A stretch of 64,000 nt of DNA from Bacteroidales bacterium (lineage in GTDB: Bacteria > Bacteroidota > Bacteroidia > Bacteroidales > UBA10428): the NCBI GenBank assembly GCA_041737175.1, contig JBGSSF010000002.1, positions 10,348 through 74,347 of the forward strand. The letters are read 5' to 3'. Position 1 is the stretch's first letter. Every line of letters starts with the position of its first letter. Shown here one piece after another: positions 4,887-47,995 of this stretch. Under the pieces are notes generated by a model, which saw nothing but the letters and a program-made list of their open reading frames with translations, searched no databases and was not told where the DNA came from. Made by a program: the position numbers and the translations under genes.

Positions 4887-5264
4887 ATGTCAGAAAAGAC
4901 AAGGTATTCCGATGAAGAACTCGAGGAGTTCAGAAAGATCATACTGGATAAGCTCGATCAGGCGAAGAAGGATTTTGATCTCCTGAAAAGTGCTATCACA
5001 CAGAGCGAAAGCAATGACACGCAAGATACCTCACCTACATTCAAGGTTCTCGAAGAAGGCGCAGCCACCCTCTCGAAAGAAGAGGCCGGAAGGCTTGCCC
5101 AGCGGCAGCAGAAATTCATTCAGCATTTGCAGGGCGCGCTGGTGAGGATCGAGAACAAGACCTACGGCATCTGCCGCGAGACCGGCAAGCTCATCTCCAA
5201 GGAAAGGTTGAGGGCTGTTCCGCATGCCACGCTTTCGATAGATGCCAAGCAGAAACAGCGTTGA
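4887..5264 (+). CDS. TraR/DksA family transcriptional regulator
   Basis: Coiled coil plus YGICRETGKLISKERLRAVPHATLSI; usual ileS-dksA-lspA context in Bacteroidota. Confidence 0.9.
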   Translation: MSEKTRYSDEELEEFRKIILDKLDQAKKDFDLLKSAITQSESNDTQDTSPTFKVLEEGAATLSKEEAGRLAQRQQKFIQHLQGALVRIENKTYGICRETGKLISKERLRAVPHATLSIDAKQKQR

Positions 5265-5274
5265 TCAGCGGTTT

Positions 5275-5970
5275 ATGAAGATTCCCAACGGCGTTAAGGC
5301 CTTATTGCTGATCGTGCTTGTACTGGCTGTTGATCAGATCGTAAAGTTCCATATCAAGACCTCCATGACCCTGGGGGAAAGCATTTATGTGCTGGGCAAC
5401 TGGTTCCAGATCCGTTTCATCGAAAACCCGGGCATGGCATTTGGTTTGGATATTCCCGGCAAATGGGGCAAACCCCTGCTCACGATTTTCAGGATCATCG
5501 CCGTGATCGTGATCGGCTGGTACCTGAGGCAACTGGTGCTCAAAAAGGTGAGCACCGGGCTCATCCTATGCGTGGCTCTGATCTTTGCAGGCGCTACAGG
5601 CAATATCATCGACAGCGTTTTTTACGGACGCATATTCAACGAAAGCACCTATTTCACCGTGGCATCGCTGTTCCCTGAAGAAGGCGGCTATGCCCCCCTG
5701 CTTTACGGCAAGGTGGTGGACATGCTTTACTTCCCCGTTATACACGGGCATTACCCGCAATGGTTCCCCGGCAGGGCAGGAGAAGAGTTCATCTTTTTCA
5801 GGCCCATTTTCAACCTCGCGGACACCTCCATCACCACCGGGATCCTGACGATACTGGTGTTTCAGAAGAGGTTTTTTCACCATCAATTGGAAGAGGGACA
5901 AGGGACGAGGGACGAGGGACAAGGAGAAGCGGCAGTGGATGGGGCAGAGGAAGTGAACCGTAAACAGTAA
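5275..5970 (+). CDS. lspA: Lipoprotein signal peptidase II; C-terminal tail is repeat-encoded
   Basis: DQIVK, NPGMAFG, GNIID, VVDM, FNLAD motifs. ATG 5275 preferred over 5242. Confidence 0.93.
   Translation: MKIPNGVKALLLIVLVLAVDQIVKFHIKTSMTLGESIYVLGNWFQIRFIENPGMAFGLDIPGKWGKPLLTIFRIIAVIVIGWYLRQLVLKKVSTGLILCVALIFAGATGNIIDSVFYGRIFNESTYFTVASLFPEEGGYAPLLYGKVVDMLYFPVIHGHYPQWFPGRAGEEFIFFRPIFNLADTSITTGILTILVFQKRFFHHQLEEGQGTRDEGQGEAAVDGAEEVNRKQ
5894..5924 (+). repeat. 7-mer AGGGAC(A/G) x4 inside the lspA 3' end
   Basis: AGGGACA AGGGACG AGGGACG AGGGACA; same unit as at 10254 and 21131. Confidence 0.85.
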
Positions 5971-6003
5971 AAAGTAAAAGGTAAACAGTAAGAAGTAAAC
6001 AGT
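5953..6003. repeat. 7-mer GTAAA(C/A)(A/G) array, downstream arm of cassette 1
   Basis: About 6-7 units; contains the lspA stop codon; inverted relative to 6432-6522. Confidence 0.9.
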
Positions 6004-6023
6004 TGCAGGCTAGTATTATAAAG

Positions 6024-6401
6024 TCATGTCTGACAAAATAAATGAGCCTTATCCATCATGGTTTTGAGCATTTTACCAACAGACAGACAGAAATCCACTA
6101 ATGCAATTTTTTCATTTTCGTTTAAATATTCACATTCTGAAGCGATTTCAATCCAATGTCTGGTTTCATATTGTTCTGAATCTGCATCAGACAATTTTGA
6201 AATGAAATGCCTTTCATATTTACGCTTTCCCCAGGCTTCTGCAATCTGTGCCCCGATGGATCTGGAAGAGCGTCTTATTTGATCAGTCAAAGAAAATCTT
6301 TCTTCTGCTGGAAATTTTTGACTTAATTCAAATATGGCTTTTGATAATTTTCTTGACGTTATATACACATCCAATTCGGTATAACTTCTAACATAACTCA
6401 T
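6024..6401 (-). CDS. Four helix bundle protein (TIGR02436 / 23S rRNA IVP family), copy 1
   Basis: L.VY...FP.EE.FSLTDQIRRSSRSI.AQIAEAW..R.Y..HF.SKL family signature; 125 aa; AT-rich. Confidence 0.93.
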   Translation of the reverse strand: MSYVRSYTELDVYITSRKLSKAIFELSQKFPAEERFSLTDQIRRSSRSIGAQIAEAWGKRKYERHFISKLSDADSEQYETRHWIEIASECEYLNENEKIALVDFCLSVGKMLKTMMDKAHLFCQT

Positions 6402-6431
6402 TGCTTCTAACTTTTAAATAACTATTGTTAC

Positions 6432-6522
6432 ATTCTACTTTTTACTTTTCACCTTTTACCTTTTACTTTTTACTGTTCACTTTTTACCTTTTACTGTTTA
6501 CTTTTTACTGTTTACCTGTTAC
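6432..6522. repeat. 7-mer (T/C)(T/G)TTTAC array, upstream arm of cassette 1
   Basis: About 12-13 units ending next to the yraN stop; reverse complement of the 5953-6003 unit. Confidence 0.9.
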
Positions 6523-6523
6523 C

Positions 6524-6886
6524 CTACCTCGCCACCGGGTGAAAAGCTTCCTTGACATGTTCCACCACGGTGCGGCTGTGGTCGATGATGATGGAGACGA
6601 TGTCGAAACGGACGTCGAGGTCGAGGTTGTGGCTGAAGATGTACCGCTCGGCGGCGAATATCAGGGAGCGCTGCTTGCGGAAGTCCACAGCGGTGTAGGG
6701 TTCACCCCAGGAATTTCCAGTGCGGGTTTTCACTTCGGCAATCACCAGCTGATCCCTGTCGCGCGCAATGATGTCGACTTCGGTGTGTTTGAAACGCCAG
6801 TTGCGTTCGAGGATCTCATACCCTTCCTCCAGTAAATATTCAACGGCGAGGTTCTCGCCCTGCTTGCCAAAACTGATATTGTCCAT
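6524..6886 (-). CDS. YraN family protein (UPF0102)
   Basis: G..GE..A..YL...GY.ILERNWR...EVDIIA...EVKTR, RFDIV. Confidence 0.92.
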   Translation of the reverse strand: MDNISFGKQGENLAVEYLLEEGYEILERNWRFKHTEVDIIARDRDQLVIAEVKTRTGNSWGEPYTAVDFRKQRSLIFAAERYIFSHNLDLDVRFDIVSIIIDHSRTVVEHVKEAFHPVAR

Positions 6887-6916
6887 AACGTATTGTTATT
6901 ATTGTTTCAAATAATG

Positions 6917-6966
6917 CTTCGACTCCGCTCAGCATGACACGCCAGTCACCCTGAGCGGAGTCGAAG
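6917..6966. repeat. REP-like hairpin, family A, minimal copy
   Basis: CTTCGACTCCGCTCAGCATGAC-ACGCCA-GTCACCCTGAGCGGAGTCGAAG; 22-bp near-perfect arms. Confidence 0.9.
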
Positions 6967-6971
6967 GGCGC

Positions 6972-7874
6972 TCAGAAGGTCATCCTGCAACCCTTATCCC
7001 CTACTTCCAGTCTCACCTCCCTCCCCAACACCAGACTCAGGTTCGGGTTGCCGTGGCCGGCGGGAAAGCCGAACATGACCGGGTAACCCTGGCCGGCAAC
7101 CGCTTCAAGGATGATTTCATGGGCCGGTTTGCGGAAGCCTGATGGAGATGTTTTCATGTTGAGCATACCTCCCACGATCAGGGCCTGCAATCCTTCGAGC
7201 TTACCCCGCAGTTTCAGGTTCATGATCATGCGGTCGATGTGGTAGAGGTATTCGCCCAGGTCCTCGATGAACAATATCTTTCCCCGGGTATCCAGGTCCA
7301 TGCAGGTACCGGTCATGCTGTACAGCACCGACAGGTTTCCGCCGATCAGGATGCCTTCCGCCGTGCCAGGAATGTTCAGGCGGTGAGGCCGGAGGGTATA
7401 TTCCTTCAGTTCGCCGAACAGCACCGAGCGTAAGGAATCAAAAGAGGCGACGTCGGGCACGGCAGGGGGGATGGCACGGAGCATGGCGCCATGCAGGCTT
7501 TCGGTTCCCAGGCATTGCTGCATGAAGGCATGGATGATGGTGATATCGCTGTAACCAACGATCCATTTGGGATGTTGGAGGAAGTTGCCGAACCTGAGCC
7601 TGTCGATGATGCGGATGCTGCCATAGCCGCCACGGGCGCACAGAATGGCGCGGATACGGGGATCATCGAGCATGTCCTGGAAATCCGCCGCGCGCTGGTT
7701 ATCGGTGCCGGCAAAGGAATTGCGCCGTTTGAACAGATGTTTGCCGAACACCGCGTGCAGACCCCAGGAACGGAGGATGTCGACGGCCGGCTGGATTTCC
7801 TGCTCGGCGAGACATCCTGCAGGCGCCGTAATCCCTACGGTATCACCCGGGCGGAGGCTGGGGGGCTGGATCAT
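6972..7874 (-). CDS. LD-carboxypeptidase (peptidase S66)
   Basis: ARGGYG, GYSDIT, GGNLS, FIED, GH motifs. Confidence 0.92.
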   Translation of the reverse strand: MIQPPSLRPGDTVGITAPAGCLAEQEIQPAVDILRSWGLHAVFGKHLFKRRNSFAGTDNQRAADFQDMLDDPRIRAILCARGGYGSIRIIDRLRFGNFLQHPKWIVGYSDITIIHAFMQQCLGTESLHGAMLRAIPPAVPDVASFDSLRSVLFGELKEYTLRPHRLNIPGTAEGILIGGNLSVLYSMTGTCMDLDTRGKILFIEDLGEYLYHIDRMIMNLKLRGKLEGLQALIVGGMLNMKTSPSGFRKPAHEIILEAVAGQGYPVMFGFPAGHGNPNLSLVLGREVRLEVGDKGCRMTF

Positions 7875-7910
7875 GATGACGTATTTGGTTTGAAATAATG
7901 GGGTTTTGAA

Positions 7911-7918
7911 TATATTTG
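7911..7918 (+). promoter_or_regulatory. Putative -7 promoter element (TATATTTG) upstream of metG
   Basis: TAnnTTTG match followed by CA. Confidence 0.45.
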
Positions 7919-7964
7919 CAAGGACTAAATATAATGAATTTCTATAAATTTTTGTAATACGATG

Positions 7965-8182
7965 CTTCGACTCCGCTCAGCATGACACGCCAGTCATAGC
8001 TCAGCATGACACGCCAGTCATAGCTCAGCATGACACGCCAGTCATAGCTCAGCATGACACGCCAGTCATAGCTCAGCATGACACGCCAGTCATAGCTCAG
8101 CATGGCACACCAGTCATAGCTCAGCATGACACGCCAGTCATAGCTCAGCATGACACGCCAGTCATCCTGAGCGGAGTCGAAG
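7965..8182. repeat. REP-like hairpin family A with an internal 24-bp unit repeated about 8 times
   Basis: Arms CTTCGACTCCGCTCAG / CTGAGCGGAGTCGAAG enclose GCTCAGCATGACACGCCAGTCATA x8 (7975-8165; one variant unit). Confidence 0.92.
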
Positions 8183-8214
8183 GATAATAATCAACTATTA
8201 TTTTACACCATAAA

Positions 8215-10248
8215 ATGTCCAAAAACTTTAAACGTCATCTCATCACCGCCGCCCTTCCCTATGCCAACGGGCCGGTACACATCGGGCACCTGGCCGGGGT
8301 TTACGTGCCGGCTGACATTTATGTCCGTTATCTCCGGCTGCGCGGAGAGGATGTCCTGTTCATCTGCGGGTCGGATGAGCACGGCGTGCCCATCACCATC
8401 AAAGCCCGCCAGGAAAAGGTAAGTCCCAGGGATATCGTGGATAAATACCACACCATGATCCGGGATTCCTTCGCGGAATTTGGCATTTCGTTCAGCATTT
8501 ATTCGAGGACCACATCGGAGACGCATTACAGGACTGCTTCGGAATTCTTTCGCACGTTGTATGACCGGGGTGACTTCATTGAGAAGACCACCCGGCAGTA
8601 TTATGACGAGGAGGTGAAGCAATTCCTGGCCGACCGGTATATAACAGGCACCTGCCCCCATTGCGGCAATGACAGCGCCTATGGCGACCAATGCGAGAAG
8701 TGCGGCACATCGCTGAATGCCACCGACCTCATCCATCCCCGTTCTACCATCAGCGGAAGTCAGCCGGTAATGAGAGACACGCTGCACTGGTTTCTGCCGC
8801 TGGACAAATATGAGCCTTTCCTCCGGAAGTGGATACTCGAAGAGAACAAAGATTGGAAATCCAATGTATACGGGCAGTGCAAATCGTGGCTCGATGCGGG
8901 ATTGCAGCCGCGCGCGGTGAGCCGTGACCTCGACTGGGGCATTCCCGTACCAGTGGAAGGGGCAACCGGCAAGGTGCTGTATGTGTGGTTTGATGCGCCC
9001 ATCGGATATATCTCGGCAACACGCGAACTGACTCCCGACTGGGAAAAGTACTGGAAGGACAAGGAAACCAGGATGATCCATTTCATCGGGAAGGACAACA
9101 TCGTGTTTCACTGCATCATCTTCCCGGCCATGCTGAAGGCCGAGGGAAGCTATATCCTCCCCGACAATGTGCCGGCCAATGAATTTCTGAATCTCGAAGG
9201 TGACAAGATATCCACGTCGCGCAACTGGGCGGTGTGGCTCCATGAATACCTGCAGGATTTCCCGGGCAAGCAGGACGTGCTGCGTTATGTGTTGTGCGCG
9301 ACGATGCCCGAAACCAAGGACAATGATTTCACCTGGAAGGATTTCCAGTCGCGCAACAACAATGAGCTCGTTGCCGTGCTGGGCAATTTCGTGAACCGTT
9401 CGCTGGTGCTGACGCAGAAATATTTCGGGGGGAAGGTGCCGGAGGCAGCGGCGCTCACGGAAAGCGACAGGGAAACCCTGGCGGAGATTCCCCGGCTTAA
9501 AGAGGCCGTGGAATACAACCTGGAGAATTTCAGGTTCCGGGATGCATTGAAGGCTGCCATGGACATGGCCCGGCTGGGCAACAAGTACCTGGCGGACGGC
9601 GAGCCCTGGATACTGATCAAGACCGATCCCTTGCGCACGGGCACCATACTGAACATTGCCCTGCAGATCACGGCCAACCTGGCCATCATCACGGAGCCCT
9701 TCCTGCCCCTGTCGGCCAAAAAGATCGCCGGTTTCACCGGCAGGAGCGACATGAAATGGCAGGATGCCGGCCAGTCGGATTTGCTGGAGGCAGGACACAA
9801 GCTGGGTGAGCCCTCCCTGCTGTTTGAGAAAATTGAAGATGAGGCTGTGGAAAATCAGCTTCAGAAACTGCAGAAAACCAAAGAGGCCAACCAGAACAAG
9901 TCGGCCGCCAAGCCGCAGAAGGAGAATATCAGCTACGATGATTTTGCGCGGATGGATATCCGGATCGGGACCATCCTGGAAGCGGTGAAGGTACCCAAGA
10001 CCAAAAAGCTGATGCAGCTGAAGATCGATACCGGCATTGATGTGCGCACCGTGGTATCAGGAATCTCCGAATATTTTGAACCCGGGGTGCTGATCGGCAA
10101 GCAGATCTGCCTGCTGGCCAACCTGGAGCCTCGCGAGATCAAGGGTATTCAATCGCAGGGCATGATATTGCTGGCGGAAGACGCCTCGGGGAAGCTGGTG
10201 TTTGTGACACCGGAGGAAGCAACGAAGGTTGGATCGGAAGTGAAATAG
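8215..10248 (+). CDS. metG: Methionine--tRNA ligase
   Basis: [13 protein letters not shown], Zn knuckle CPHC/CEKC, KISTS, C-terminal tRNA-binding domain. Confidence 0.97.
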
Positions 10249-10253
10249 AAATC

Positions 10254-10384
10254 AGGGACGAGGGACAAGGGACAAGGGACGAGGAAAAACAGAAGCAGCA
10301 GTAGCAGCGGCAGCAGCAGATAGGGCATGCTCCGGACTCCAAACCCAAGACAAACTTGTCCCTCGTCCCTTGTCCCTTGTCCCT
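10254..10384. repeat. Gene-less two-armed cassette: AGGGAC(G/A) x4 / GCA-rich run plus core / T(T/C)GTCCC x4
   Basis: Inverted 7-mer arms at 10254-10284 and 10356-10384, just after the metG stop. Confidence 0.88.
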
Positions 10385-10420
10385 TTTCTTTATATATTTG
10401 TTTCAAATTAACCACAGGTC

Positions 10421-11287
10421 ATGGCCGAGAAAACCGAAAAAGAGTCTTTCTGGGAGAAGTTCAAGCATAAATACAGGTTGTCGATTTACAGGGATGAGAC
10501 TTTTGAAGAAGTGCTCAATGTGCGGCTCACCAAGCTGAATGTGATGTCCATTGTGGGTATCGGAACTTTACTTTTCCTGGTCATCGTGATATCGATCATT
10601 GCCTATACTCCTGTCCGGGAACTTATACCGGGTTATCCCGACCAGGAGACCATCCGGAACATATACATGAACAATTACCGGCTCGATTCACTGGAACTGG
10701 AGATCACCAAGCGGGATGCCTACTTTGAGAATCTGCGGAGGATCATTGCCGGTGAGGGGCCTCTTGACCCGGCTGAGACCACTTCGGAACCTGAGCCGAC
10801 GAGGCAGGTGAACTTTGTGAGATCGAGGGAGGACTCTGCACTCAGGGCTTTGGTAGAGCCGCGGGATCAGTTCGGTTTGTCGGTCATTGAAAGCCGGAAG
10901 GGAAAGCCTGCTTTTTTCAGCGTGCTTTTCTTTCCACCGGTGAAAGGGATGATCACCAACTCGTTCAACAGCGGGATGGACCATTACGGCACCGATATCG
11001 TGGCCGGCACCAACGAGGTGGTGAAGGCAACGCTTCCCGGCACGGTGACCATGGCAGGCTGGACCCTGGAGACAGGTTATGTCATTCAACTGCAGCATGC
11101 CGACAACATCATTTCGGTATACAAGCACAACGCGGAGTTGCTGAAGCACATCGGTGACCATGTGAAAGCCGGCGAGCCCATTGCCATCATCGGGAACTCG
11201 GGAGAGCTCACCACCGGTCCCCACCTGCATTTTGAGCTCTGGTACAGCGGTACACCCGTTAATCCCGAAGACTACATCTCATTCTGA
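10421..11287 (+). CDS. M23 family metallopeptidase
   Basis: HYGTD, YKH, TGPHLHFE motifs; N-terminal TM helix. Confidence 0.92.
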   Translation: MAEKTEKESFWEKFKHKYRLSIYRDETFEEVLNVRLTKLNVMSIVGIGTLLFLVIVISIIAYTPVRELIPGYPDQETIRNIYMNNYRLDSLELEITKRDAYFENLRRIIAGEGPLDPAETTSEPEPTRQVNFVRSREDSALRALVEPRDQFGLSVIESRKGKPAFFSVLFFPPVKGMITNSFNSGMDHYGTDIVAGTNEVVKATLPGTVTMAGWTLETGYVIQLQHADNIISVYKHNAELLKHIGDHVKAGEPIAIIGNSGELTTGPHLHFELWYSGTPVNPEDYISF

Positions 11288-11310
11288 GAGCGTTCACCAC
11301 GCGGTCTGAT

Positions 11311-12471
11311 ATGAAACGACGCATAGCGATCCTCGGATCCACCGGATCAATCGGCACACAGGCGCTGGAAGTCATCCTGCAGCATGAGGATCTTTTTGAG
11401 GTGGTGGCGCTGACGGCTGGGCGCAATGCCGACCTGCTGATTGAACAGGCGCTGCGTTTTGTCCCCCCTTACGTTGTAATTGCCGATGAGGCGGGTTATC
11501 CCCTGGTTCGGGAAGCCCTGGCGAAGCTGCCCGTCAAGGTGCTTGCCGGAACAAAAGCTTTGGCGGAGGTAGCCTGCATTCCGGAGGCGGATATCGTACT
11601 GACCGCCATGGTGGGTTTCTCAGGCCTGCAGCCCACGCTTGCCGCCATCCAACACGGAAAACATATTGCCCTGGCCAACAAGGAGACCCTTGTGGTGGCA
11701 GGATCCCTGATCACCTCCCTGGCCCGGCAGACAGGATCGGACATTTACCCTGTGGATTCGGAGCATTCAGCCATATTCCAGTGCCTGGCAGGCGAAGATC
11801 CCGGCACCGTGGAAAAGCTTATCCTGACTGCCTCGGGCGGTCCATTCCGGGGAATGAAAAGAGAAGCCCTGCAAAAAGTGACCAGCCGGGAGGCCCTCAA
11901 ACACCCCAACTGGTGCATGGGGAACAAGGTAACCATTGATTCGGCATCATTGATGAACAAGGGACTGGAAGTGATTGAGGCGCGCTGGCTCTTTGGCATC
12001 GATCCCGGCAGGATTGAAGTGGTGATCCACCCCCAGAGTATCATCCATTCCATGGTGCAGTTCACCGACGGATCCATCAAGGCACAGCTGGGCCTTCCGG
12101 ATATGCGGCTCCCCATTCAGTATGCGCTGGGATATCCCAACCGCCTGCCATCGGATTTTCCGCGGTTCACCTTTTCGGGATGCCGGGAGTTCACCTTTGA
12201 GGAACCTGACCGGCATCTGTTCCGTAATCTCGACCTGGCTTACAAAGCCCTGCAAGCCGGGGGCAACATGCCGTGCATCATGAATGCCGCCAATGAGGTG
12301 GTTGTGGAGGAGTTCCTGAAGGACAGGATCGGGTTTCTGCAGATGCCGGATGTGATAGAGGAGGTGATGGGGAAGGTGGATTTTATTGCAGAACCGGACT
12401 TCGGGGATCTGGAGGAGACGGATGGGGAGGCGAGGAGGATGGCGAGGGGGGTTGGGAGAGGTAAAAGGTAA
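11311..12471 (+). CDS. dxr: 1-deoxy-D-xylulose-5-phosphate reductoisomerase
   Basis: LGSTGSIG, LANKE, PVDSEHSAIFQ, TASGGPF, NKGLEVIEA. Confidence 0.97.
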   Translation: MKRRIAILGSTGSIGTQALEVILQHEDLFEVVALTAGRNADLLIEQALRFVPPYVVIADEAGYPLVREALAKLPVKVLAGTKALAEVACIPEADIVLTAMVGFSGLQPTLAAIQHGKHIALANKETLVVAGSLITSLARQTGSDIYPVDSEHSAIFQCLAGEDPGTVEKLILTASGGPFRGMKREALQKVTSREALKHPNWCMGNKVTIDSASLMNKGLEVIEARWLFGIDPGRIEVVIHPQSIIHSMVQFTDGSIKAQLGLPDMRLPIQYALGYPNRLPSDFPRFTFSGCREFTFEEPDRHLFRNLDLAYKALQAGGNMPCIMNAANEVVVEEFLKDRIGFLQMPDVIEEVMGKVDFIAEPDFGDLEETDGEARRMARGVGRGKR

Positions 12472-12565
12472 ACAGTAAAAAGTAAAAGGTAAAAAGTAAA
12501 AGGTAAAAAGTAAACAGTAAAAAGTAAAAGGTAAAAAGTAAAAAGTAAAAGGTAAAAAGTAGAAT
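12461..12565. repeat. 7-mer GTAAA(A/C)(A/G) x14 array, upstream arm of cassette 2
   Basis: 14 in-phase units at 12461-12558; contains the dxr stop codon. Confidence 0.92.
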
Positions 12566-12595
12566 GTAGCAATAGTTATTTAAAAGTTAGATGCA

Positions 12596-12973
12596 ATGAG
12601 TTATGTTAGAAGTTATACCGAATTGGATGTGTATATAACATCAAGGAAATTATCTAAAGCCATATTCGAAATCAGTCAAAAATTTCCGGCTGAAGAAAAA
12701 TTCTCTTTGACAGATCAAATAAGACGCTCTTCCAGATATGTCGGAGCGCAGATCGCAGAAGCCTGGGGGAAACGTAAATATGAAAAGCATTTCATTTCAA
12801 AATTGTCAGATGCAGATGCAGAGCAATATGAAACCAGGCATTGGATTGAAATCGCTTCAGAATGTAATTATTTAAACGAAAATGAAAAGAATACATTACT
12901 GGATTTCTGTCTGGCAGTTGGCAAAATGCTCAAATCCATGATTGATAAAGCCCATTTATTTTGTCAGACATAA
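12596..12973 (+). CDS. Four helix bundle protein (TIGR02436 / 23S rRNA IVP family), copy 2
   Basis: By manual alignment, 13 of 125 aa differ from the protein at 6024-6401. Confidence 0.93.
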   Translation: MSYVRSYTELDVYITSRKLSKAIFEISQKFPAEEKFSLTDQIRRSSRYVGAQIAEAWGKRKYEKHFISKLSDADAEQYETRHWIEIASECNYLNENEKNTLLDFCLAVGKMLKSMIDKAHLFCQT

Positions 12974-12995
12974 TATTATAGTATTAGCCTACAAC

Positions 12996-13065
12996 TGTTT
13001 ACTTTTTACTTTTTACTGTTTACTGTTTACTGTTTACTGTTTACTGTTTACTGTTTACTGTTTAC
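12996..13065. repeat. 7-mer T(G/T)TTTAC x10 array, downstream arm of cassette 2
   Basis: 10 in-phase units; reverse complement of the upstream arm. Confidence 0.92.
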
Positions 13066-13098
13066 CTGATCCCGCAAATTTCCCAAAAAAATAAACTC

Positions 13099-13106
13099 TA
13101 TATTTG
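13099..13106 (+). promoter_or_regulatory. Putative -7 promoter element (TATATTTG) for rseP
   Basis: TAnnTTTG followed by CA, about 22 nt before the ATG. Confidence 0.55.
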
Positions 13107-13128
13107 CACCTAAATTAAAACAATCTAC

Positions 13129-14484
13129 ATGGGCGTTGTCATTCAGATCAGCCAGTTATTGCTGAGCTTATCCATCCTGATTATTCTGCACGAGCTGGGA
13201 CATTTTATTTTCGCACGGATTTTTCATACCCGGGTTGAGAAGTTCTACCTGTTTTTTGACCCCTGGTTCTCGCTTTTCAAAATCAAGCGCGGGGATACCG
13301 AGTACGGTATCGGCTGGCTGCCGCTTGGCGGGTATGTGAAGATTTCGGGCATGATCGATGAATCGATGGATAAGGAGCAGATGAAACAGCCCCCGCAACC
13401 CTGGGAATTCAGGTCGAAACCCACGGGACAGCGCCTGCTGATCATGTTGGGCGGCGTAATGGTGAACCTGATCCTGGGTTTTATCATTTATGCGGCCGTG
13501 CTTTACACCTGGGGTGAGAAATTCCTTCCCAACAGGAATCTTACCAACGGAATCTGGTGTGTTGACTCCATCGCCCTGGATGCCGGATTCAGAACAGGGG
13601 ACAAGATTATCTCGATCAACGGGGTTGAACCCCAGCGGTATGAAGATATTTACCGGGAGGTGATCTTTGGCGGAACCGTGAAGGTTATCCGCGACAACAA
13701 GACGGATTCCTTCACCATCCCCGGCGACTTTATCGGAAAACTGGTTGAGGAGAGCGGCGTAATGCTGTTTTATCCCAGGGTTCCCTTTATCATCCGGGAA
13801 GTTCCCGATACTTCCGTGAACAGCCAGGCCGGACTGAAGCCGAAGGATCAGGTGATGAGCGTCAACGGAGTGCCCATCCGGTTTTATGACGAGTACCTGG
13901 GTCTTGTGGATACACTCGAACCCGGACCCATCACCGCTGAAGTATTGCGGGACGGGAAAACGGTACCGCTTGCCCTGATGCTCACCCCGCAAAAGAAACT
14001 GGAAGTGCTGACCCTGATCCCCACTTTTGAGGAGCTTGACAGGCTGGGTTTATACAAAATGGAAACCCGCACCTTCAGCTTTGCGCAGGCCATACCGGCA
14101 GGATTCAGGCTGGCCGGTGACAGGCTGGGATTTTATATCAAGCAGTTCAAGCTGATCTTTGATTTTAAGACCGGCGCATATAAGGGACTTGGCGGATTCG
14201 GCACCATTGGCGGGCTGTTCCCGAGAGAATGGGAGTGGCAATCGTTTTGGGAAATAACGGCATTTTTGTCGCTCATCCTGGCTTTCATGAATGTGCTTCC
14301 CATTCCGGGACTCGATGGCGGGCATGTCACTTTCCTGCTTTACGAAATCGTAACCCGGCGGAAACCATCCGATAAATTCATGGAATACGCCCAGATCGTG
14401 GGGATGGTGATTATCATCGGACTGCTGATCTATGCGAACACGAATGATATCCTCCGGTGGATCGAGAGACTGGTGGGGAAATAG
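13129..14484 (+). CDS. rseP: RIP metalloprotease RseP
   Basis: HELGH, PLGGYV, PDZ regions, NVLPIPGLDGG. Confidence 0.96.
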   Translation: MGVVIQISQLLLSLSILIILHELGHFIFARIFHTRVEKFYLFFDPWFSLFKIKRGDTEYGIGWLPLGGYVKISGMIDESMDKEQMKQPPQPWEFRSKPTGQRLLIMLGGVMVNLILGFIIYAAVLYTWGEKFLPNRNLTNGIWCVDSIALDAGFRTGDKIISINGVEPQRYEDIYREVIFGGTVKVIRDNKTDSFTIPGDFIGKLVEESGVMLFYPRVPFIIREVPDTSVNSQAGLKPKDQVMSVNGVPIRFYDEYLGLVDTLEPGPITAEVLRDGKTVPLALMLTPQKKLEVLTLIPTFEELDRLGLYKMETRTFSFAQAIPAGFRLAGDRLGFYIKQFKLIFDFKTGAYKGLGGFGTIGGLFPREWEWQSFWEITAFLSLILAFMNVLPIPGLDGGHVTFLLYEIVTRRKPSDKFMEYAQIVGMVIIIGLLIYANTNDILRWIERLVGK

Positions 14485-14492
14485 GAAGAGGG

Positions 14493-14636
14493 GGAGACAA
14501 GGGGACAAGGGGACAAGGGGACAAGGAGACAAGGAGACAAGGGGACAAGGAGACAAGGAGACAAGGAGACAAGGAGACAAGGAGACAAGGGGACAAGGTG
14601 ACAAGGAGACAAGGGGACAAGGAGACAAGGAGATAA
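14493..14636. repeat. 8-mer GG(A/G)GACAA x18 one-armed array
   Basis: 18 in-phase units immediately after the rseP stop. Confidence 0.92.
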
Positions 14637-14711
14637 ATAGAAATACCAAGAAAACAGGCCGGAAATCAAAAAATATTCTAATTTTACCCGTTCAAATTTA
14701 AAACGTTTCCT

Positions 14712-14903
14712 ATGAACCTGAATATTGTATTATTTGCCTTAGGGCCGACGGAGATTATACTGGTCCTGGTTGTTGTTCTGCTGCTCTTTGGCGGAAGGAA
14801 GATCCCCGAACTCATGAGGGGACTGGGCCAGGGCATGAAGGAATTCAAGAAAGCCTCCAAGGCCGGTGATGAGGAAGACACGACAAAGGAGAAGGAAAAG
14901 TAA
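14712..14903 (+). CDS. tatA: Twin-arginine translocase TatA/TatE subunit
   Basis: [39 protein letters not shown]. Confidence 0.95.
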
Positions 14904-14929
14904 TTTCCAAAGCCTTAACCTGCCGAGCA

Positions 14930-15028
14930 ATGTCACTGGGACCAACCGAAATACTGCTCATTGTTGTTGTATTGCTGTTGCTTGTGGGCGGCAAGATGAT
15001 AGAATATGAGGCAAAACGCCGGGAATAA
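14930..15028 (+). CDS. 32-aa truncated TatA-like peptide (or pseudogene)
   Basis: Translates to MSLGPTEILLIVVVLLLLVGGKMIEYEAKRRE*, paralleling the TatA TM helix. Confidence 0.6.
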   Translation: MSLGPTEILLIVVVLLLLVGGKMIEYEAKRRE

Positions 15029-15049
15029 CATTTTGTAAAGGATATTCGT

Positions 15050-15080
15050 AAAACCTGTCAATGGTATGGCAGGTTTTTTT
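15050..15080 (+). terminator. Rho-independent terminator after the tatA genes
   Basis: AAAACCTGTCA-ATGGTA-TGGCAGGTTTTTTT. Confidence 0.75.
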
Positions 15081-15164
15081 CATTTATTCAGGCAGAGCCT
15101 GAAAAGATAGATCCGACTCAGGCCGGAGCCTGAGCCGAACCTTTTAATAAGTATATTTGTGGCG

Positions 15165-16286
15165 ATGATGCAATTTTTCCTGATCCTGTTTCTTTTTCTG
15201 ATACCCCTGTCGGGTTCCGGCGGTTCCGGGATGACCGACGACAAGGATATGCTGTACGAATACCGCATCGCGCAGCTGAACAAGTTATCCCCGATAGTCC
15301 TGGATTACAACGAAGATGTCAGGAAGTACATTGATTTGTACACGGGCCCCCGCAAGGCTGAAATGGCGAGGATCATCGGGCTTTCCAGGTTGTATTTCCC
15401 GATCTTTGATGACATACTCGACCGGCATTCTCTTCCGCATGAGCTGAAATACCTCACCATCGTTGAATCGGGACTGAATCCGCTGGCGGTGTCCAAATCG
15501 GGCGCCGTGGGATTGTGGCAGTTTCTGCTGAATACAAGCAGGCTGTTTGACCTGGAGGTCAATTCCTATGTGGATGAGCGGCGTGATCCTTATAAATCCA
15601 CCGAATCGGCCTGCCGGTACCTGCATTACCTGAACACCACCTTCAACGACTGGCAGCTGGTGCTTGCTTCCTACAACGGCGGACCCGGCGAAGTCAGAAA
15701 AGCCATTGAAAGGTGCAAGGGTGAGACCGGTTACTGGAAGCTGCGGCCCTACCTGTCGGAGCAGGCGAGAAATTACGTGCCTGCATTCATTGCAGCCTTT
15801 TACCTGATGAATTTCTACGAGCAGCACGGCATTGTTCCCGAAGCTCCTGCTTATGACTACCGGGGACTGGACACGCTGCACATCCGCTATGCCATTACCT
15901 TTGAACAGATCTCATCGTACATTGACCTGCCGGTGGACAAGATCAGGCTGCTGAATCCGGTTTACCGGCGGGATTACATTCCCGAAAAGCCTTCGGGGTC
16001 GGTGCTGGTTCTTCCGGCGGACAAAATACGCCTTTACCTGGAGCATGAGACCAGCATCCTGGGTTTCAGCCTGACGCCACCCGATTATAACCTGATGGTG
16101 CAGCAATCGGGGAATACCACGGGCAAGATCAAAATCGTCCATGTTGTTCAGCCGGGGGAGGTGACGCATAAGATCGCCATGAAGTACGACTGCACCCTGG
16201 AGAATATCAAGATCTGGAATAATATGGAGGGGTTTGAGGTGAAGGCGGGGCAGCAATTGGTTATTTGGATTGAGGAGAAGAAGTGA
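15165..16286 (+). CDS. Lytic transglycosylase (SLT + LysM, MltD-like)
   Basis: IVESGLNP.A.S..GA.GLWQF, DERRDP, SYNGG; C-terminal LysM. Start uncertain (15159-15168). Confidence 0.9.
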   Translation: MMQFFLILFLFLIPLSGSGGSGMTDDKDMLYEYRIAQLNKLSPIVLDYNEDVRKYIDLYTGPRKAEMARIIGLSRLYFPIFDDILDRHSLPHELKYLTIVESGLNPLAVSKSGAVGLWQFLLNTSRLFDLEVNSYVDERRDPYKSTESACRYLHYLNTTFNDWQLVLASYNGGPGEVRKAIERCKGETGYWKLRPYLSEQARNYVPAFIAAFYLMNFYEQHGIVPEAPAYDYRGLDTLHIRYAITFEQISSYIDLPVDKIRLLNPVYRRDYIPEKPSGSVLVLPADKIRLYLEHETSILGFSLTPPDYNLMVQQSGNTTGKIKIVHVVQPGEVTHKIAMKYDCTLENIKIWNNMEGFEVKAGQQLVIWIEEKK

Positions 16287-16297
16287 GTGGGGGACTT

Positions 16298-16456
16298 GGA
16301 GACAAGGGGACAAGGGGAAAAGGGGAAAAGGAGGCAAGGAGACAAGGAGGCAAGGAGACAAGGGGACAAGGAGGCAAGGGGACAAGGGGAAAAGGGGACA
16401 AGGAGACAAGGGGAAAAGGAGGCAAGGGGAAAAGGAGGCAAGGGACAAGGAGATTA
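16298..16456. repeat. 8-mer GG(A/G)G(A/G)(C/A)AA x18 array, upstream arm of cassette 3
   Basis: 18 in-phase units at 16298-16441 plus a 7-mer unit. Confidence 0.92.
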
Positions 16457-16529
16457 TGAAAACAATTATTTATATTTGAGCGTATTTTTTAGAACGTTAT
16501 TTATTTGTTATGTGTAATACTTATTATTT

Positions 16530-16907
16530 ATGGAAAATATTAAAACGCATAGGGACCTTAGGGTTTATAAATTGGCATTTGTAACAGCACAAAAAATTTA
16601 CCAACTCTCAAGGGAATTCCCTACAATTGAGAGATATTCATTAACTGACCAAATTCGAAGAAGTTCACGTTCTGTAGCTGCCAATATTGCTGAGGCTTAT
16701 CGTGCTCGTCGATATCCTGCAGCATTTATTTCTAAACTCAATCAATCTGAGGGCGAGGCAGCAGAGACTCAAGTTTGGCTTGAATTTGCAGAATCTTGCA
16801 ATTACATAGATATGAAACTATGGGACGACTTGTTTAATACTTATGAACAGATCATTGGCATGATCGTAAATATGGTAAATATGCCAGAAAAATGGAAAAT
16901 CGGATAA
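16530..16907 (+). CDS. Four helix bundle protein (TIGR02436 / 23S rRNA IVP family), copy 3, divergent subtype
   Basis: HRDLRVY...FP..ERYSLTDQIRRSSRSVAANIAEAY..RRY..F.SKL...EGEAAETQVWL; AT-rich. Confidence 0.93.
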   Translation: MENIKTHRDLRVYKLAFVTAQKIYQLSREFPTIERYSLTDQIRRSSRSVAANIAEAYRARRYPAAFISKLNQSEGEAAETQVWLEFAESCNYIDMKLWDDLFNTYEQIIGMIVNMVNMPEKWKIG

Positions 16908-16912
16908 ATTTT

Positions 16913-16971
16913 CTCCTTCTCCTTGTCTCCCCTCTCCCCCTCACCTTGTCTCCTTGTCTCCCCCTCTCCCC
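16913..16971. repeat. CCTTGTCT / CCCCTCTC array, downstream arm of cassette 3
   Basis: Reverse complement of the GGAGACAA-type unit; abuts the purF stop. Confidence 0.85.
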
Positions 16972-18863
16972 TAATACGCCCTAACATTCCTTCCCTCAAT
17001 AAAATTCAGGAAAGAACGATTAACAACTCTGTTCCCTCCCGGCGTGGGGTAGTTGCCGGTGAAATACCAGTCGCCCAAATGATTCGGAATGGCCACATGA
17101 AGATTTTCGATGGTCTGGTAAACGATCCTGATCTCAGCCCGGATGTCGGGGGTCTTCAGCATTTGCGCGATCTTATCGGAGATTTGCTCGGGGGTGAAGG
17201 GCCGGTATATTTCCTTCACGTGATTGATGACTTCTTCCTTCGGAAGATCCTCACTTGCTTTGGTTTTCCGGTACACTTCATTGATGATGTTTTCCCTGCC
17301 CGATTCTTTCAGCAGGGCGATGGCGGCTTTAAAGGCAATAAAATCTCCCAGCTTGGCCATATCGATGCCGTAGCAATCGGGGTACCTGATCTGCGGCGAT
17401 GAAGAGACGATCACGATGCGTTTGGGCTTCAGCCGGTCGAGTATTCTGATGATGCTGTACTTCAGCGTAGTGCCACGCACGATGGAATCATCAATGATCA
17501 CCAGGCTATCGGTGTTTTTCCGGATTGTGCCGTAGGTGATGTCGTAAACGTGTCCCACCAGGTCATCCCGGCGTTCGTCCTGGGTGATGAAAGTCCGCAG
17601 CTTGATGTCCTTGAGGGCAACCTTTTCAACGCGGGGTTTCAGGTAGATGATGCTGTCGATTTCCTCTTCGGTGATATTGCTGCCGAGGTTCAGTATCCTT
17701 TTTTTCTTTTGTTCCTTCATGACCTTCTCGACACCCTGGATCATTCCGTAGAAGGCCGATTCAGCCGTATTGGGGATGAAGGAGAACACCGTGTTCTCGA
17801 GATCACCGTCGACAGCATCGACAATTTTATCTGTGAGCAGTTCCCCGAGTTTTTTACGTTCGGCATAGATATCCTGATCGCTTCCGCGGGAGAAATAGAT
17901 GCGTTCGAAAGAGCAGCTGCGCTTATCGAATGGTCCGCGGATATTCTCGAGGTTCATGTTTCCGTTTTTCTTGATGATGAGAGCGGTTCCGGGATCAAGC
18001 TCCATGACGTCGGTGGTCTCTACATTCATGACAGTCTGGATGGCCGGCCTCTCCGAAGTGACCACGACTATCTCATCGTTCATGTAGTAAAATGCAGGCC
18101 TGATGCCCCACGGATCCCTGATCACAAATGCATCGCCGTGGCCGAGAAGACCGGCGATCACATAGCCTCCGTCCCATTTTTTGCTGCTTTCCCGAAGCAC
18201 ATTCCCCACATTGAGACTGTCGGCGATCAATTCCGATATTTCATTGTTATCGTGTCCCAGTTTTTTGAAATGATCGAAGTTCCGTTGGATTTCCCGGTCG
18301 AGGAAATGGCCGATATTCTCCAGCATGGTAACGGTGTCGGAGAAGTCACGCGGATCCTGACCGAGGTCGACCAGGACCTGGAAAAGCTCATCCACGTTGG
18401 TGAGGTTGAAATTCCCGGCCAGCAGAAGGTTTCGTGTTTTCCAGTTGTTCAGGCGCATGACCGGGTGCACTCTTTCGATATCATTGTTGCCGTATGTGCC
18501 ATAGCGGAGATGGCCCAGCAGCACTTCAGCCGCAAAGGGAAGATGCTCCTTGGCCCATAAGGGATCTGTGACCAGATCCGCATCAAATTTATCGAAGTGT
18601 TTGCGAAGGGCTTTAAAGACATCGTTGATGGCAGCCTGTTTGACGGATCGTTCACGGTGGACATACTGCATGCCCGGTCGGAGGCCCAGCTTGATGGAGG
18701 CAATCCCGGCGCCGTCCTGTCCCCGGTTATGCTGCTTTTCCATGAGGAGATACAGTTTGTTGATACCGTATTTCCAGGTTCCGTATGTCAGCTGATAATA
18801 TTCAAGGGGTTTCAGAAGCCTTACCAGGGCTATTCCGCATTCGTGATTAATTCCATCGGTCAT
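16971..18863 (-). CDS. purF: Amidophosphoribosyltransferase
   Basis: HECG N-terminus, QHNRGQDGAG, GHLRY, CSFERIYFSRG, DDSIVRGTT, YGIDM. Confidence 0.93.
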   Translation of the reverse strand: MTDGINHECGIALVRLLKPLEYYQLTYGTWKYGINKLYLLMEKQHNRGQDGAGIASIKLGLRPGMQYVHRERSVKQAAINDVFKALRKHFDKFDADLVTDPLWAKEHLPFAAEVLLGHLRYGTYGNNDIERVHPVMRLNNWKTRNLLLAGNFNLTNVDELFQVLVDLGQDPRDFSDTVTMLENIGHFLDREIQRNFDHFKKLGHDNNEISELIADSLNVGNVLRESSKKWDGGYVIAGLLGHGDAFVIRDPWGIRPAFYYMNDEIVVVTSERPAIQTVMNVETTDVMELDPGTALIIKKNGNMNLENIRGPFDKRSCSFERIYFSRGSDQDIYAERKKLGELLTDKIVDAVDGDLENTVFSFIPNTAESAFYGMIQGVEKVMKEQKKKRILNLGSNITEEEIDSIIYLKPRVEKVALKDIKLRTFITQDERRDDLVGHVYDITYGTIRKNTDSLVIIDDSIVRGTTLKYSIIRILDRLKPKRIVIVSSSPQIRYPDCYGIDMAKLGDFIAFKAAIALLKESGRENIINEVYRKTKASEDLPKEEVINHVKEIYRPFTPEQISDKIAQMLKTPDIRAEIRIVYQTIENLHVAIPNHLGDWYFTGNYPTPGGNRVVNRSFLNFIEGRNVRAY

Positions 18864-21130: not shown

Positions 21131-21239
21131 AGGGACAAGGGACAAGGGACAGGGGACAAGTGTGTTTGGGATTATGGGTTGTGAGCATGCCCTTACTCCC
21201 AAAGCCCTATACTCCCTTGTCCCTTGTCCCTTGTCCCTT
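21131..21239. repeat. Gene-less two-armed cassette (A/G)GGGACA x4 / core / CCCTTGT x3-4
   Basis: Inverted arms at 21131-21160 and 21214-21239, between cimA and leuB. Confidence 0.88.
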
Positions 21240-23441: not shown

Positions 23442-23634
23442 ATGTTTGTTGTGTTTGTTGTGATTGTTGTGGTTGTTGTGATTGTTGTGATTGTTGTGGT
23501 TGTTGTGATTGTTGTGGTTGTTGTGATTGTTGTGGTTGTTGTGATTGTTGTGGTTGTTGTGGTTGTTGTGGTTGTTGTGGTTGTTGTGGTTGTTATGTCT
23601 GCAACGATTCACAACCATCACAACCACCACAACG
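23442..23634. repeat. 9-mer GTG(A/G)TTGTT x17 with a short inverted arm (CACAACCAT/CAC)
   Basis: 17 units at 23442-23594; inverted arm at 23610-23634; lies between leuC and leuD. Confidence 0.9.
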
Positions 23635-26824: not shown

Positions 26825-26932
26825 AGGCTGTAGGCTGTAGGCTATAGGCTATAGGCTATAGGAAGAACACTCCCAAATCACATGCCCATAGGCTTTCAGC
26901 CTACAGCCTACAGCCTAAACCCCTACAGCCTA
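26825..26932. repeat. Gene-less two-armed cassette AGGCT(G/A)T x5 / spacer / CAGCCTA x4-5
   Basis: Inverted 7-mer arms; the yebC stop codon lies in the right arm. Confidence 0.88.
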
Positions 26933-47829: not shown

Positions 47830-47885
47830 TGCAGAGGAATGTGATTAGGTTAAAATGATTAAGGTAGGCAAATGTAAGAAAAAAA

Positions 47886-47995
47886 GTGATGAGTGATGAG
47901 TGAAGAGTGATGAGTAATGAGTGAGCATGGGATTTGTGTATGCTCCAGTCCCAAAACCCAAATCCCGCTCATTACTCATTACTCATTACTCATTT
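47886..47995. repeat. Gene-less two-armed cassette GT(G/A)ATGA x5 / core / CTCATTA x4
   Basis: Inverted 7-mer arms between divergent TAnnTTTG elements at 47869-47876 (-) and 48008-48015 (+). Confidence 0.88.

Follow-up and report, generated by a model that had tools for sequence, protein, structure and literature searches.

Heptanucleotide tandem repeats, of which the cyanobacterial STRR are one kind, and the intervening sequences (IVSs) of 23S rRNA genes, whose open reading frames (ORFs) encode proteins of the PF05635 family, are among the described systems closest to the one considered here. The IVS of Coxiella carries a 28-bp terminal inverted-repeat stem and is excised by RNase III, and three to four copies of GACAGAT, a number that varies between strains, lie just upstream of its ORF (Warrier 2016, PMC4990558). 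The same source quotes older ideas that IVSs are remnants of transposition, or mobile elements whose ORF serves mobility, and describes a Xanthomonas family protein as a homopentameric torus. The family has been called Avd-like and is the Pfam family most commonly linked to diversity-generating retroelements (DGRs) (PMC10053308), a figure legend of PMC10910872 names it as one of the CRISPR-linked domains, and it was still 'functionally uncharacterized' in 2024 (PMC11270868). As for the heptanucleotide repeats, Xanthomonas genomes contain 70-75 inverted pairs of GGGAATC repeats each, which could form stem-loops (PMC4692102), and TAACTGA arrays have been found in Beggiatoaceae, Cyanobacteria and five Bacteroidetes, where they are suspected of having spread horizontally, with 'no mechanism evident' (PMC4679880). 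Heptamer arrays and inverted pairs are described in these papers with no gene partner, and an IVS ORF with a stem and a few heptamers is described from one organism. Here we describe three PF05635 genes, each enclosed by inverted arrays of 7-8-nt tandem repeats, in a stretch of 64,000 nucleotides (henceforth referred to as the window) from a Bacteroidales bacterium (assembly GCA_041737175.1, contig JBGSSF010000002.1, positions 10,348 to 74,347; 4.32 Mb in 36 contigs, 97.6% complete). We think it probable that the three loci are copies of a hairpin cassette of the IVS type that is widespread and is here situated at the 3' ends of protein genes, with the PF05635 gene in the loop and the inverted arrays as the stem.

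The three cassettes consist of the following features, the arrays having been called with Tandem Repeats Finder (TRF).
5951-6003, minus strand: downstream (3') arm of cassette 1, reverse complement of the upstream arm; contains the lspA stop codon.
6024-6401, minus strand: IVP1, a 125-aa PF05635 four-helix-bundle protein (ORF list and Pfam; GC 0.34).
6428-6522, minus strand: upstream (5') arm of cassette 1, TTACTTT x12.6; on the gene strand, heptamers of GTAAAAA, GTAAAAG and GTAAACA type.
12461-12568, plus strand: upstream arm of cassette 2, GTAAAAA x14.4; overlaps the final 11 nt of dxr.
12596-12973, plus strand: IVP2, a 125-aa PF05635 protein with 90% amino acid identity to IVP1 (dN/dS 0.13).
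12994-13065, plus strand: downstream arm of cassette 2, ACTGTTT x10.3, the reverse complement of GTAAACA.
16290-16453, plus strand: upstream arm of cassette 3, octamers GGGGACAA/GGAGACAA x20.
16530-16907, plus strand: IVP3, a 125-aa PF05635 protein with 36% identity to IVP2.
16921-16971, plus strand: downstream arm of cassette 3, CCCCTCTC/CCTTGTCT, also CCTTGTCTCC/CCCCTCTC; reaches to the stop codon of the purF-like gene, which is convergent.

The initial annotation, made from the letters alone, had described three AT-rich genes for 125-aa proteins of this family, each with a purine-rich 7/8-mer array upstream and the reverse-complement array downstream. Pfam, TRF and the sequence agree with this for all three, and the gene coordinates also held, although the gene at 6024-6401 lies on the minus and not the plus strand. 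IVP1-3 match the PF05635 23S_rRNA_IVP profile with E values of 1e-29 to 5e-31 and scores of 101.7-107.5 bits (cut-off 33.8 bits), covering profile positions 1 or 2 to 105 of 106; the family assignment was made through PF05635. A relation to Avd, noted in the same annotation, is reflected in weaker matches to bAvd PF22296 (E 3e-11 to 2e-4), that of IVP2 alone lying above the 40-bit cut-off of that profile. These two are the sole Pfam families matched by IVP1-3, with no HUH/Y1 (IS200-like) transposase; the cassettes are without a transposase, and Q41, R44 and E55 are the only residues invariant across the family proteins compared. The GC content of the genes (34-37%) lies 16-23 points below that of their neighbours (53-57%), which Pfam identifies, as had been guessed, as lspA and UPF0102/yraN at cassette 1, dxr and an M50/rseP-like gene at cassette 2, and an SLT-LysM (mltD-like) and a GATase (purF-like) gene at cassette 3. 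Each upstream array starts at or near a host stop codon, 1 nt past that of yraN, in the last 11 nt of dxr and 3 nt past that of the mltD-like gene, and all three IVP genes are co-oriented with the upstream host gene. That a transcript could fold with the ORF in its loop also agrees with prediction: in minimum free energy (MFE) folds the arms pair across a loop of ~400 nt in all three cassettes and on both strands, with 44-66 nt of arm paired and z of -4.0 to -9.9 against dinucleotide shuffles. A search of window positions 5000-18000 against Rfam, at E up to 1, returned no known RNA family and no rRNA match, except for sub-threshold matches resembling miRNA precursors to a gene-less hairpin at 10232-10405.

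The association of family and arrays extends through the host genome, which has 12 family ORFs, seven of them in the first 27 kb of the window contig. Reverse-complementary arrays lie within 150 nt on both sides of 10 of the 12, as compared with 12 of the 3358 other ORFs of a crude greedy gene call of this genome and with 3 of 779 ORFs of up to 600 nt; this very strong enrichment over background bears out the initial annotation. Of the two family ORFs outside the layout, one is a weak member (E 1e-9) and the other lies 215 nt from the end of a contig. Chance is excluded as the source of the cassette layout. The units differ from cassette to cassette (GATCGAA, AGTCTTGC, AGTTGTGC, TGGTGAA, GTTGTGATG, GTAAAAA twice, GGGGACAA, AATAAGA and one 10-mer), and immediately upstream of the window four successive intergenic regions in a span of 5 kb (contig C10:2211-7322, locus L058) each contain a cassette with distinct arms. 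Co-orientation with the upstream gene, correctly described for the window copies, does not hold as a rule: two of the seven family copies on the window contig lie in divergent regions according to the ORF listing, and a flipped copy in congeners is described below. The host genome has 1783 array loci of period 5-30, among which periods 7, 8 and 9 account for 442, 269 and 293, and the density of 7/8-mer arrays is 11 per 100 kb. The window contig has a GC content of 0.479 (0.42-0.46 in the other contigs). The reported lack of a reverse transcriptase in the window extends to the 97.6%-complete genome, which has no match to PF00078. A gene for RNase III is present; large subunit (LSU) rRNA is absent from the assembly, and with it the host 23S rRNA.

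PF05635 was present in 27 of 31 related genomes, and by a k-mer criterion inverted arrays surround 17 of the 30 family ORFs in these relatives. From a scan of one genome per species the best 80 of 598 relatives were kept; they represent Bacteroidota, Ignavibacteria, Acidobacteriota, Chlorobi, Planctomycetota, Nitrospirales, Desulfobacterota, Firmicutes, Spirochaetes, Alphaproteobacteria, candidate phyla and two archaea. Among these best 80 loci an array of 5-12-nt units lies within 250 nt on at least one side of the gene in 71, on both sides in 40 and in clearly inverted form in 28, and arrays cover 21.8% of bases up to 125 nt from the gene as against 2.0-2.6% at 250-1500 nt. Family relatives were found in 31 plasmid records of named organisms, of which 12 were examined (from cyanobacteria, Gemmatirosa, Azospirillum and Riemerella): 7/8-mer arrays flank the gene on both sides in all 12 and, by reading, are reverse-complementary across it in 10. 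The plasmid sites include the junctions between two ribonucleotide reductase (RNR) genes, cas6/cas4 (twice), cmr2/cmr3 and parA/parB.

The cassettes within CRISPR-cas operons are carried by plasmids of Anabaena sp. 90 (L202), Pseudanabaena galeata (L204) and Picosynechococcus PCC 7003 (L205). Such cassettes may explain why PF05635 is scored as CRISPR-associated in large screens, and insertion within operons (cas6/cas4, cmr2/cmr3, RNR, parA/parB) could mislead guilt-by-association screens more generally.

The locus on plasmid AZO_p2 of Azospirillum lipoferum lies inside an LSU rRNA gene (RF02541, 1089.8 bits) and has inverted arms of GAGGACG-type heptamers that enclose the family gene. It is a genuine classical 23S IVS with the same anatomy as the cassettes, and it gives substance to the link with rRNA IVSs that the initial annotation had drawn. 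Taken together with the anatomy of the Coxiella IVS, this locus indicates that the window cassettes are, to judge by their sequence, elements of the same kind as these IVSs, lodged in a different type of site.

Comparison of paralogous and orthologous sites indicates that gene and arms change as one unit. Cassettes 1 and 2 are homologous from outer array end to outer array end and their flanks are unrelated, as expected of the cassette that the initial annotation had proposed; no direct repeat was seen by eye at these outer ends, which are fuzzy. Their genes share ~90% nucleotide identity (dS 0.40, dN/dS 0.13), and IVP1 and IVP2 have been kept under purifying selection since duplication. At the dxr-rseP junction we compared 27 loci from 24 genomes of the genus: eight are short and clean (57-131 nt), nine contain arrays without a gene, five contain an IVP gene (the host genome, L037, which is partial, L039, L040 and L042) and five are uninformative owing to contig ends, frameshifted genes or, in one form, a 285-nt gap without arrays. 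The 17 lspA-yraN loci comprise four IVP cassettes, one gene-less AGGGACA hairpin (L147), two with arrays only, two clean junctions with a 33-nt gap and eight uninformative ones. The four cassettes here have arms of three families, namely GTAAAAA in the window, AGGGACA in L143 and 8-mers in L150 and L156, the IVP gene of L156 being fragmented. Empty sites at both junctions thus speak for the spread that the initial annotation had envisaged. The lspA-yraN junction of the window carries a trace of its own.
5889-5924, plus strand: AGGGACA array in the C-terminal tail of lspA (TRF), adjoining the GTAAAAA cassette 1.
This array probably served as the left arm in an older hairpin or cassette with AGGGACA units that persists at the junction in two congeners (L143 and L147).

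Two comparisons at dxr-rseP bear on how the unit changes. The protein of L018 and L042 belongs to one subfamily with IVP2 (64% identity; dxr identity 69%), and the arms within that subfamily differ, being GTAATCG in L018/L042 and GTAAAAA in cassette 2; in each case both arms have changed jointly. Between L040 and L042 the GTAATCG-type arms are fixed relative to dxr and rseP and the gene is inverted. Such a flip could also come from an invertible switch, in which the arms turn the gene by homologous recombination, the 'on' state is co-orientation with the upstream gene, as in all three window copies, and slippage tunes the rate. We regard a switch of this kind as highly improbable, since a single interspecies flip is expected of any long inverted repeat and is uninformative about regulated switching, two window-contig copies lie in divergent regions, and gene-less hairpins and the rRNA IVS case are left unaccounted for. 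Inverted arms of ~30 nt are, moreover, poor RecA substrates, and the many cassettes with arms of this size would recombine poorly. Overall, the alignments show the gene with its arms to be, at the level of sequence, the unit that has been duplicated, gained or lost, and flipped, and its arms to have evidently stayed mutually reverse-complementary while the sequence of the repeat unit drifted.

Although the units differ between cassettes, they share a core. When 54 upstream heptamers were rotated into register they gave the consensus A-G-[T/G]-[G/A]-A-N-N (henceforth A-G-K-R-A), with an information content of 4.69 bits vs 3.64 ± 0.14 (maximum 4.00) for letter-shuffled units (n=54, several entries being from one genus and not independent). 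The core is also found in Acidobacteriota, Chlorobi, Firmicutes, Planctomycetota and archaea. Polarity is equally regular: G exceeds C in 64 upstream arms vs 8, and C exceeds G in 71 downstream arms vs 8. Because the layout is palindromic, the G-rich arm is 5' on either strand and a flip of the gene leaves polarity unchanged. Arms measure a median of 4.6 and 4.95 units, with a mode of 4-5, many cassettes having arms of ~30 nt, and the family's relatives in the Protein Data Bank (PDB), 2rld and 2gsc (E ~1e-6), have five chains each. Across 31 genomes the count of a four-unit A-G-K-R-A pattern rose with IVP copy number (Spearman 0.73, a value whose independence is overstated by the relatedness of the genomes, which tells against our interpretation). 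The four IVP-less genomes all have zero matches, and so do six genomes with 1-10 IVP copies, in these because their units differ. Arrays of 7/8-mers with at least three copies, counted irrespective of unit in sampled DNA, numbered 3 in 285 kb from IVP-less genomes (0, 0, 3 and 0 in samples of 51-100 kb) vs 18 in 320 kb from IVP-bearing ones (6, 2, 7 and 3 in samples of 26-100 kb). Array load follows family copy number across genomes.

Two other explanations of the units were set aside. A translational insulator, with stops in all frames from periods of 7 and 8 that are not multiples of three, was rejected as the main explanation: the fraction of units with a stop triplet is 0.66 upstream vs 0.58 after shuffling, and arms read outward have an equal stop excess. 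G-tracts, which a G-quadruplex would need, occur in some units only (AGGGACA, GGGGACAA) and most of the 54 lack them, as judged from the units.

Arrays also occur with no gene between them. The host genome has 62 inverted pairs of neighbouring arrays, 40 of which have a gap of up to 250 nt and no gene; five of these are in the window and are given below together with a solitary array.
10254-10385, no strand: gene-less inverted hairpin, AGGGACA x4.4 / CTTGTCC x4.4 with a 70-nt loop.
14493-14633, plus strand: solitary G-rich octamer array, GGAGACAA x17.6, starting 9 nt past the rseP-like stop; same unit family as the arm of cassette 3.
21131-21239, no strand: gene-less inverted hairpin, AGGGACA / TCCCTTG, with inner GGGATT/CCCAAA arms and a GCATGC centre.
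23446-23633, no strand: gene-less inverted 9-mer arrays, TTGTTGTGG x16.6 / TCACAACCA x2.8.
26825-26932, no strand: gene-less inverted hairpin, AGGCTAT / CAGCCTA.
47885-47994, no strand: gene-less inverted hairpin, AGTGATG / CTCATTA.
In many gene-less hairpins a GCATGC-like centre lies between a GGGATTTGGG-type and a CCCAAATCCC-type run, an inner structure that is also found upstream of family genes in relatives. Arrays of period 7/8 are concentrated in convergent intergenic regions (148 arrays in 314 regions, compared with 242 in 1581 co-directional and 50 in 488 divergent ones), and in convergent regions the array beside a gene 3' end is G-rich on the sense strand of that gene in 125 of 147 cases.

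This last distribution is what one would expect if the roles were reversed, in a partnership like that of REPINs and RAYTs: the protein would act in trans on hundreds of 3'-end hairpins that serve the host as terminators or mRNA stabilisers, the gene's own arrays would merely be the nearest members or be autoregulatory, and the whole would be mostly vertical and not selfish. Besides the fixed polarity of the 3'-end arrays, their absence or rarity in IVP-less genomes, the purifying selection on the protein, the retention of the dxr-linked copy across congeners and the conservation of the unit core across phyla all agree with such a partnership. It fits poorly with a gene that is patchy at orthologous sites, with different arm families at the same junction, with the GC deficit of 16-23 points, with an invader-like spread across phyla, onto plasmids and into cas, RNR and par operons and rRNA, and with the lack of a cognate gene in the host genome for the most abundant gene-less families. 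Weighing both sides, we consider reversed roles rather unlikely.

The window also contains a palindromic element of another kind, with stem CGACTCCGCTCAG / CTGAGCGGAGTCG, at 6918-6960 and 7975-8165. In one copy a 24-nt loop-side unit, GCTCAGCATGACACGCCAGTCATA, is amplified x8 with 97% identity, and the 16-nt core is present at 11 places in the genome, distributed over two contigs. The amplification of GCTCAGCATGACACGCCAGTCATA is an example of tandem growth within a hairpin in the host genome.

Since the host genome thus provides a case of hairpin-linked slippage, the arms might be a by-product: the protein would have an unrelated function, as an orphan Avd-like chaperone or addiction module, its AT-rich gene would land in terminator hairpins, and slippage would grow the arrays. 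Heptamers are reported to be the commonest long simple repeats in prokaryotes and have been ascribed to polymerase slippage (Mrazek 2007, cited in PMC4679880), the complementarity of the arms looks DNA-made and lacks a wobble bias (see below), and L147 has a gene-less hairpin with the same arm family at the site where L143 has a cassette. A by-product would nevertheless leave unexplained the scarcity of arrays in IVP-less genomes, the A-G-K-R-A core and G-rich-first polarity from Bacteroidota to archaea, the 10 of 12 family ORFs against 12 of 3358 others, and the movement of arms with the gene to a second site, and in our estimation it is improbable.

Returning to the hairpin cassette, its arms would be cis-acting and would travel with the gene. 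Its landing sites would be the 3' ends of genes or, in other cases, rRNA helices and the interior of operons, and gain, loss, replacement, duplication and flipping of the cassette would all take place at the DNA level. The arms could pair in transcripts that read through, and RNase III could cut the stem, as in rRNA IVSs, and thereby make the insertion tolerated; we lean slightly against this step. Slippage and exchange between the inverted arms would keep them complementary, and the same process would flip the gene; DNA-level concerted evolution of this kind is the likely origin of arm complementarity, and exchange between arms fits both the flip and the absent wobble bias. The pentameric protein might recognise the A-G-K-R-A core, with ~5 units per arm, and act in a RAYT-like manner on its own arms and on gene-less arrays, an idea suggested by unit core, polarity, arm size and co-occurrence which we put forward tentatively. 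Equally speculative is the route of spread, in which new sites would be reached through host recombination or replication at hairpins rather than by an encoded transposase. In its widest and still doubtful form, the proposal is that PF05635 is the long-missing partner of heptanucleotide arrays (STRR, TAACTGA and GGGAATC-type), in which case the ring would bind ~5 A-G-K-R-A heptamers, paralogues and units would co-evolve, gene-less hairpins at gene 3' ends would be non-autonomous derivatives that the protein keeps up or disperses, and the rRNA IVS would be one landing site among others of a transposase-less cassette that crosses domains.

Several observations weigh against parts of this scheme. 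The dxr position is common to some congeners with a protein of the same subfamily, and so the dxr-linked copy looks partly vertically kept rather than purely hopping, which qualifies the spread claimed in the initial annotation. Its suggestion of action at the RNA level fared worse: mismatches between arms show no excess compatible with G:U pairing on the sense strand (76 vs 88, p = 0.39) and transversions (206) exceed transitions, which argues against selection for a stem in sense RNA and for homogenisation at the DNA level. To our knowledge archaea mostly lack RNase III, so that with archaeal carriers its cutting cannot be a general explanation. In several cassettes, by reading, the upstream arm contains an AT-rich spacer that bears promoter-like TTTG...TAnnTTT motifs; mRNA started there would be without the 5' arm. 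No recognisable catalytic motif was found in the PF05635 protein, and no enzyme for mobility was identified. Arrays are mostly solitary, with 62 inverted pairs among the 1783 array loci, and for AGGGACA and AGTRATG, the most abundant gene-less families, the host genome has no IVP gene with identical arms. Among public sequencing runs, finally, the RNA run contained array-like words only. Considered as a whole, the interpretation given in the initial annotation is partly supported.

The other public runs concern the locus as DNA. One DNA run, probably the source, contained 0.97 of the locus words and 19 others at most 0.24; four runs that were examined contained mainly array words, besides conserved parts of dxr, and reached depths of hundreds at 12471-12592 and 13020-13080, and one X4 contig spans 12503-12900 with 38 differences. 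Duplex energies had favoured the sense RNA in 76 vs 38 of 114 cassettes, a comparison that was set aside as evidence for sense-RNA stem selection because sequence outside the arms dominated it and shuffles were nearly as stable (-114 vs -140).

The arrays also touch the genes beside them. The lspA tail (5889-5970) includes the translated AGGGACA array and has its TAA stop inside the arm of cassette 1, and at the dxr 3' end (12400-12471) the last ~70 nt are purine-rich and of low complexity, with the TAA stop in the GTAAAAA array; as both ORFs run into arrays, the arrays give the host proteins C-terminal extensions. The stretch that separates cassette 2 with its downstream arm from the start of the rseP-like gene (13066-13128) contains TATATTTG, which fits TAnnTTTG, the -7 promoter motif of Bacteroidota, and rseP may thus own a promoter downstream of the cassette. 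Beside the contig-edge family copy, locus L061 (contig C3:1-900) carries a 57-nt direct repeat with a CCGCCATCGGCGGGGC palindrome and a CCCTCCATCGCT[TC]CGCGCTGGCGG repeat. Inverted hexamer/trinucleotide arrays lie at 32698-32911 of the window, AGCAGT-type x18 followed by CCTGCT-type x11, and their period is a multiple of three, unlike that of the 7-8-mers.

In the literature, subscription journals and supplements aside, we found no paper that ties this family to flanking inverted arrays, no statement that PF05635 genes are as a rule enclosed by inverted 7-8-nt arrays across phyla, nor that gene-less arrays track a PF05635 gene, and the cassettes can be set against four described systems. They resemble 23S rRNA IVSs in having a PF05635 protein, in the position of the gene in the loop of a stem formed by terminal inverted repeats, and in the heptamer repeats that adjoin the ORF in Coxiella, Azospirillum and the window copies. 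In contrast to IVSs, the window copies lie between lspA/yraN, dxr/rseP and mltD/purF-like genes and not in an rRNA helix, their long arms consist of up to 20 tandem units, and many gene-less hairpin arrays accompany them. With REPIN-RAYT systems, whose inheritance is largely vertical (PMC3337134), they have in common a single small gene that lies between inverted copies of a short element, the dispersal of that element without the gene as intergenic hairpin doublets (here the 40 pairs with gaps of up to 250 nt) and a family-specific pairing of gene and repeat. RAYT, however, is an HUH/Y1 transposase, whereas PF05635 is a four-helix bundle without a known catalytic motif; the cassette arms are tandem 7-8-mers and not a unique palindrome, and PF05635 crosses phyla and domains and occurs on plasmids. 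Likeness to Avd is one of fold or family neighbourhood, seen in the bAvd PF22296 matches of IVP1-3, and of assembly, there being pentamers among solved PF05635 relatives (2rld and 2gsc). The missing PF00078 match in the host genome sets the cassettes apart from DGRs and speaks against a DGR link for them, and we know of no inverted heptamer arrays in the DGR layout. The described heptanucleotide repeats are intergenic heptamer arrays, sometimes in convergent pairs, as in the genome studied here, and AGTTATC, a rotation of the reverse complement of TAACTGA, fits an A-G-K-N-A core. They differ in that the arrays are here tied to a four-helix-bundle gene, whereas neither PMC4679880, in which the term '23S' is absent, nor PMC4692102, in which 'S23' is absent, mentions this gene, supplements excepted. 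Gene and arrays form one unit across Bacteroidota, cyanobacteria, Acidobacteriota, Proteobacteria and archaea, with the arms of classical rRNA IVSs built alike, and two old puzzles, an uncharacterized gene family and intergenic heptamer arrays that lacked a mechanism, merge into one testable question.

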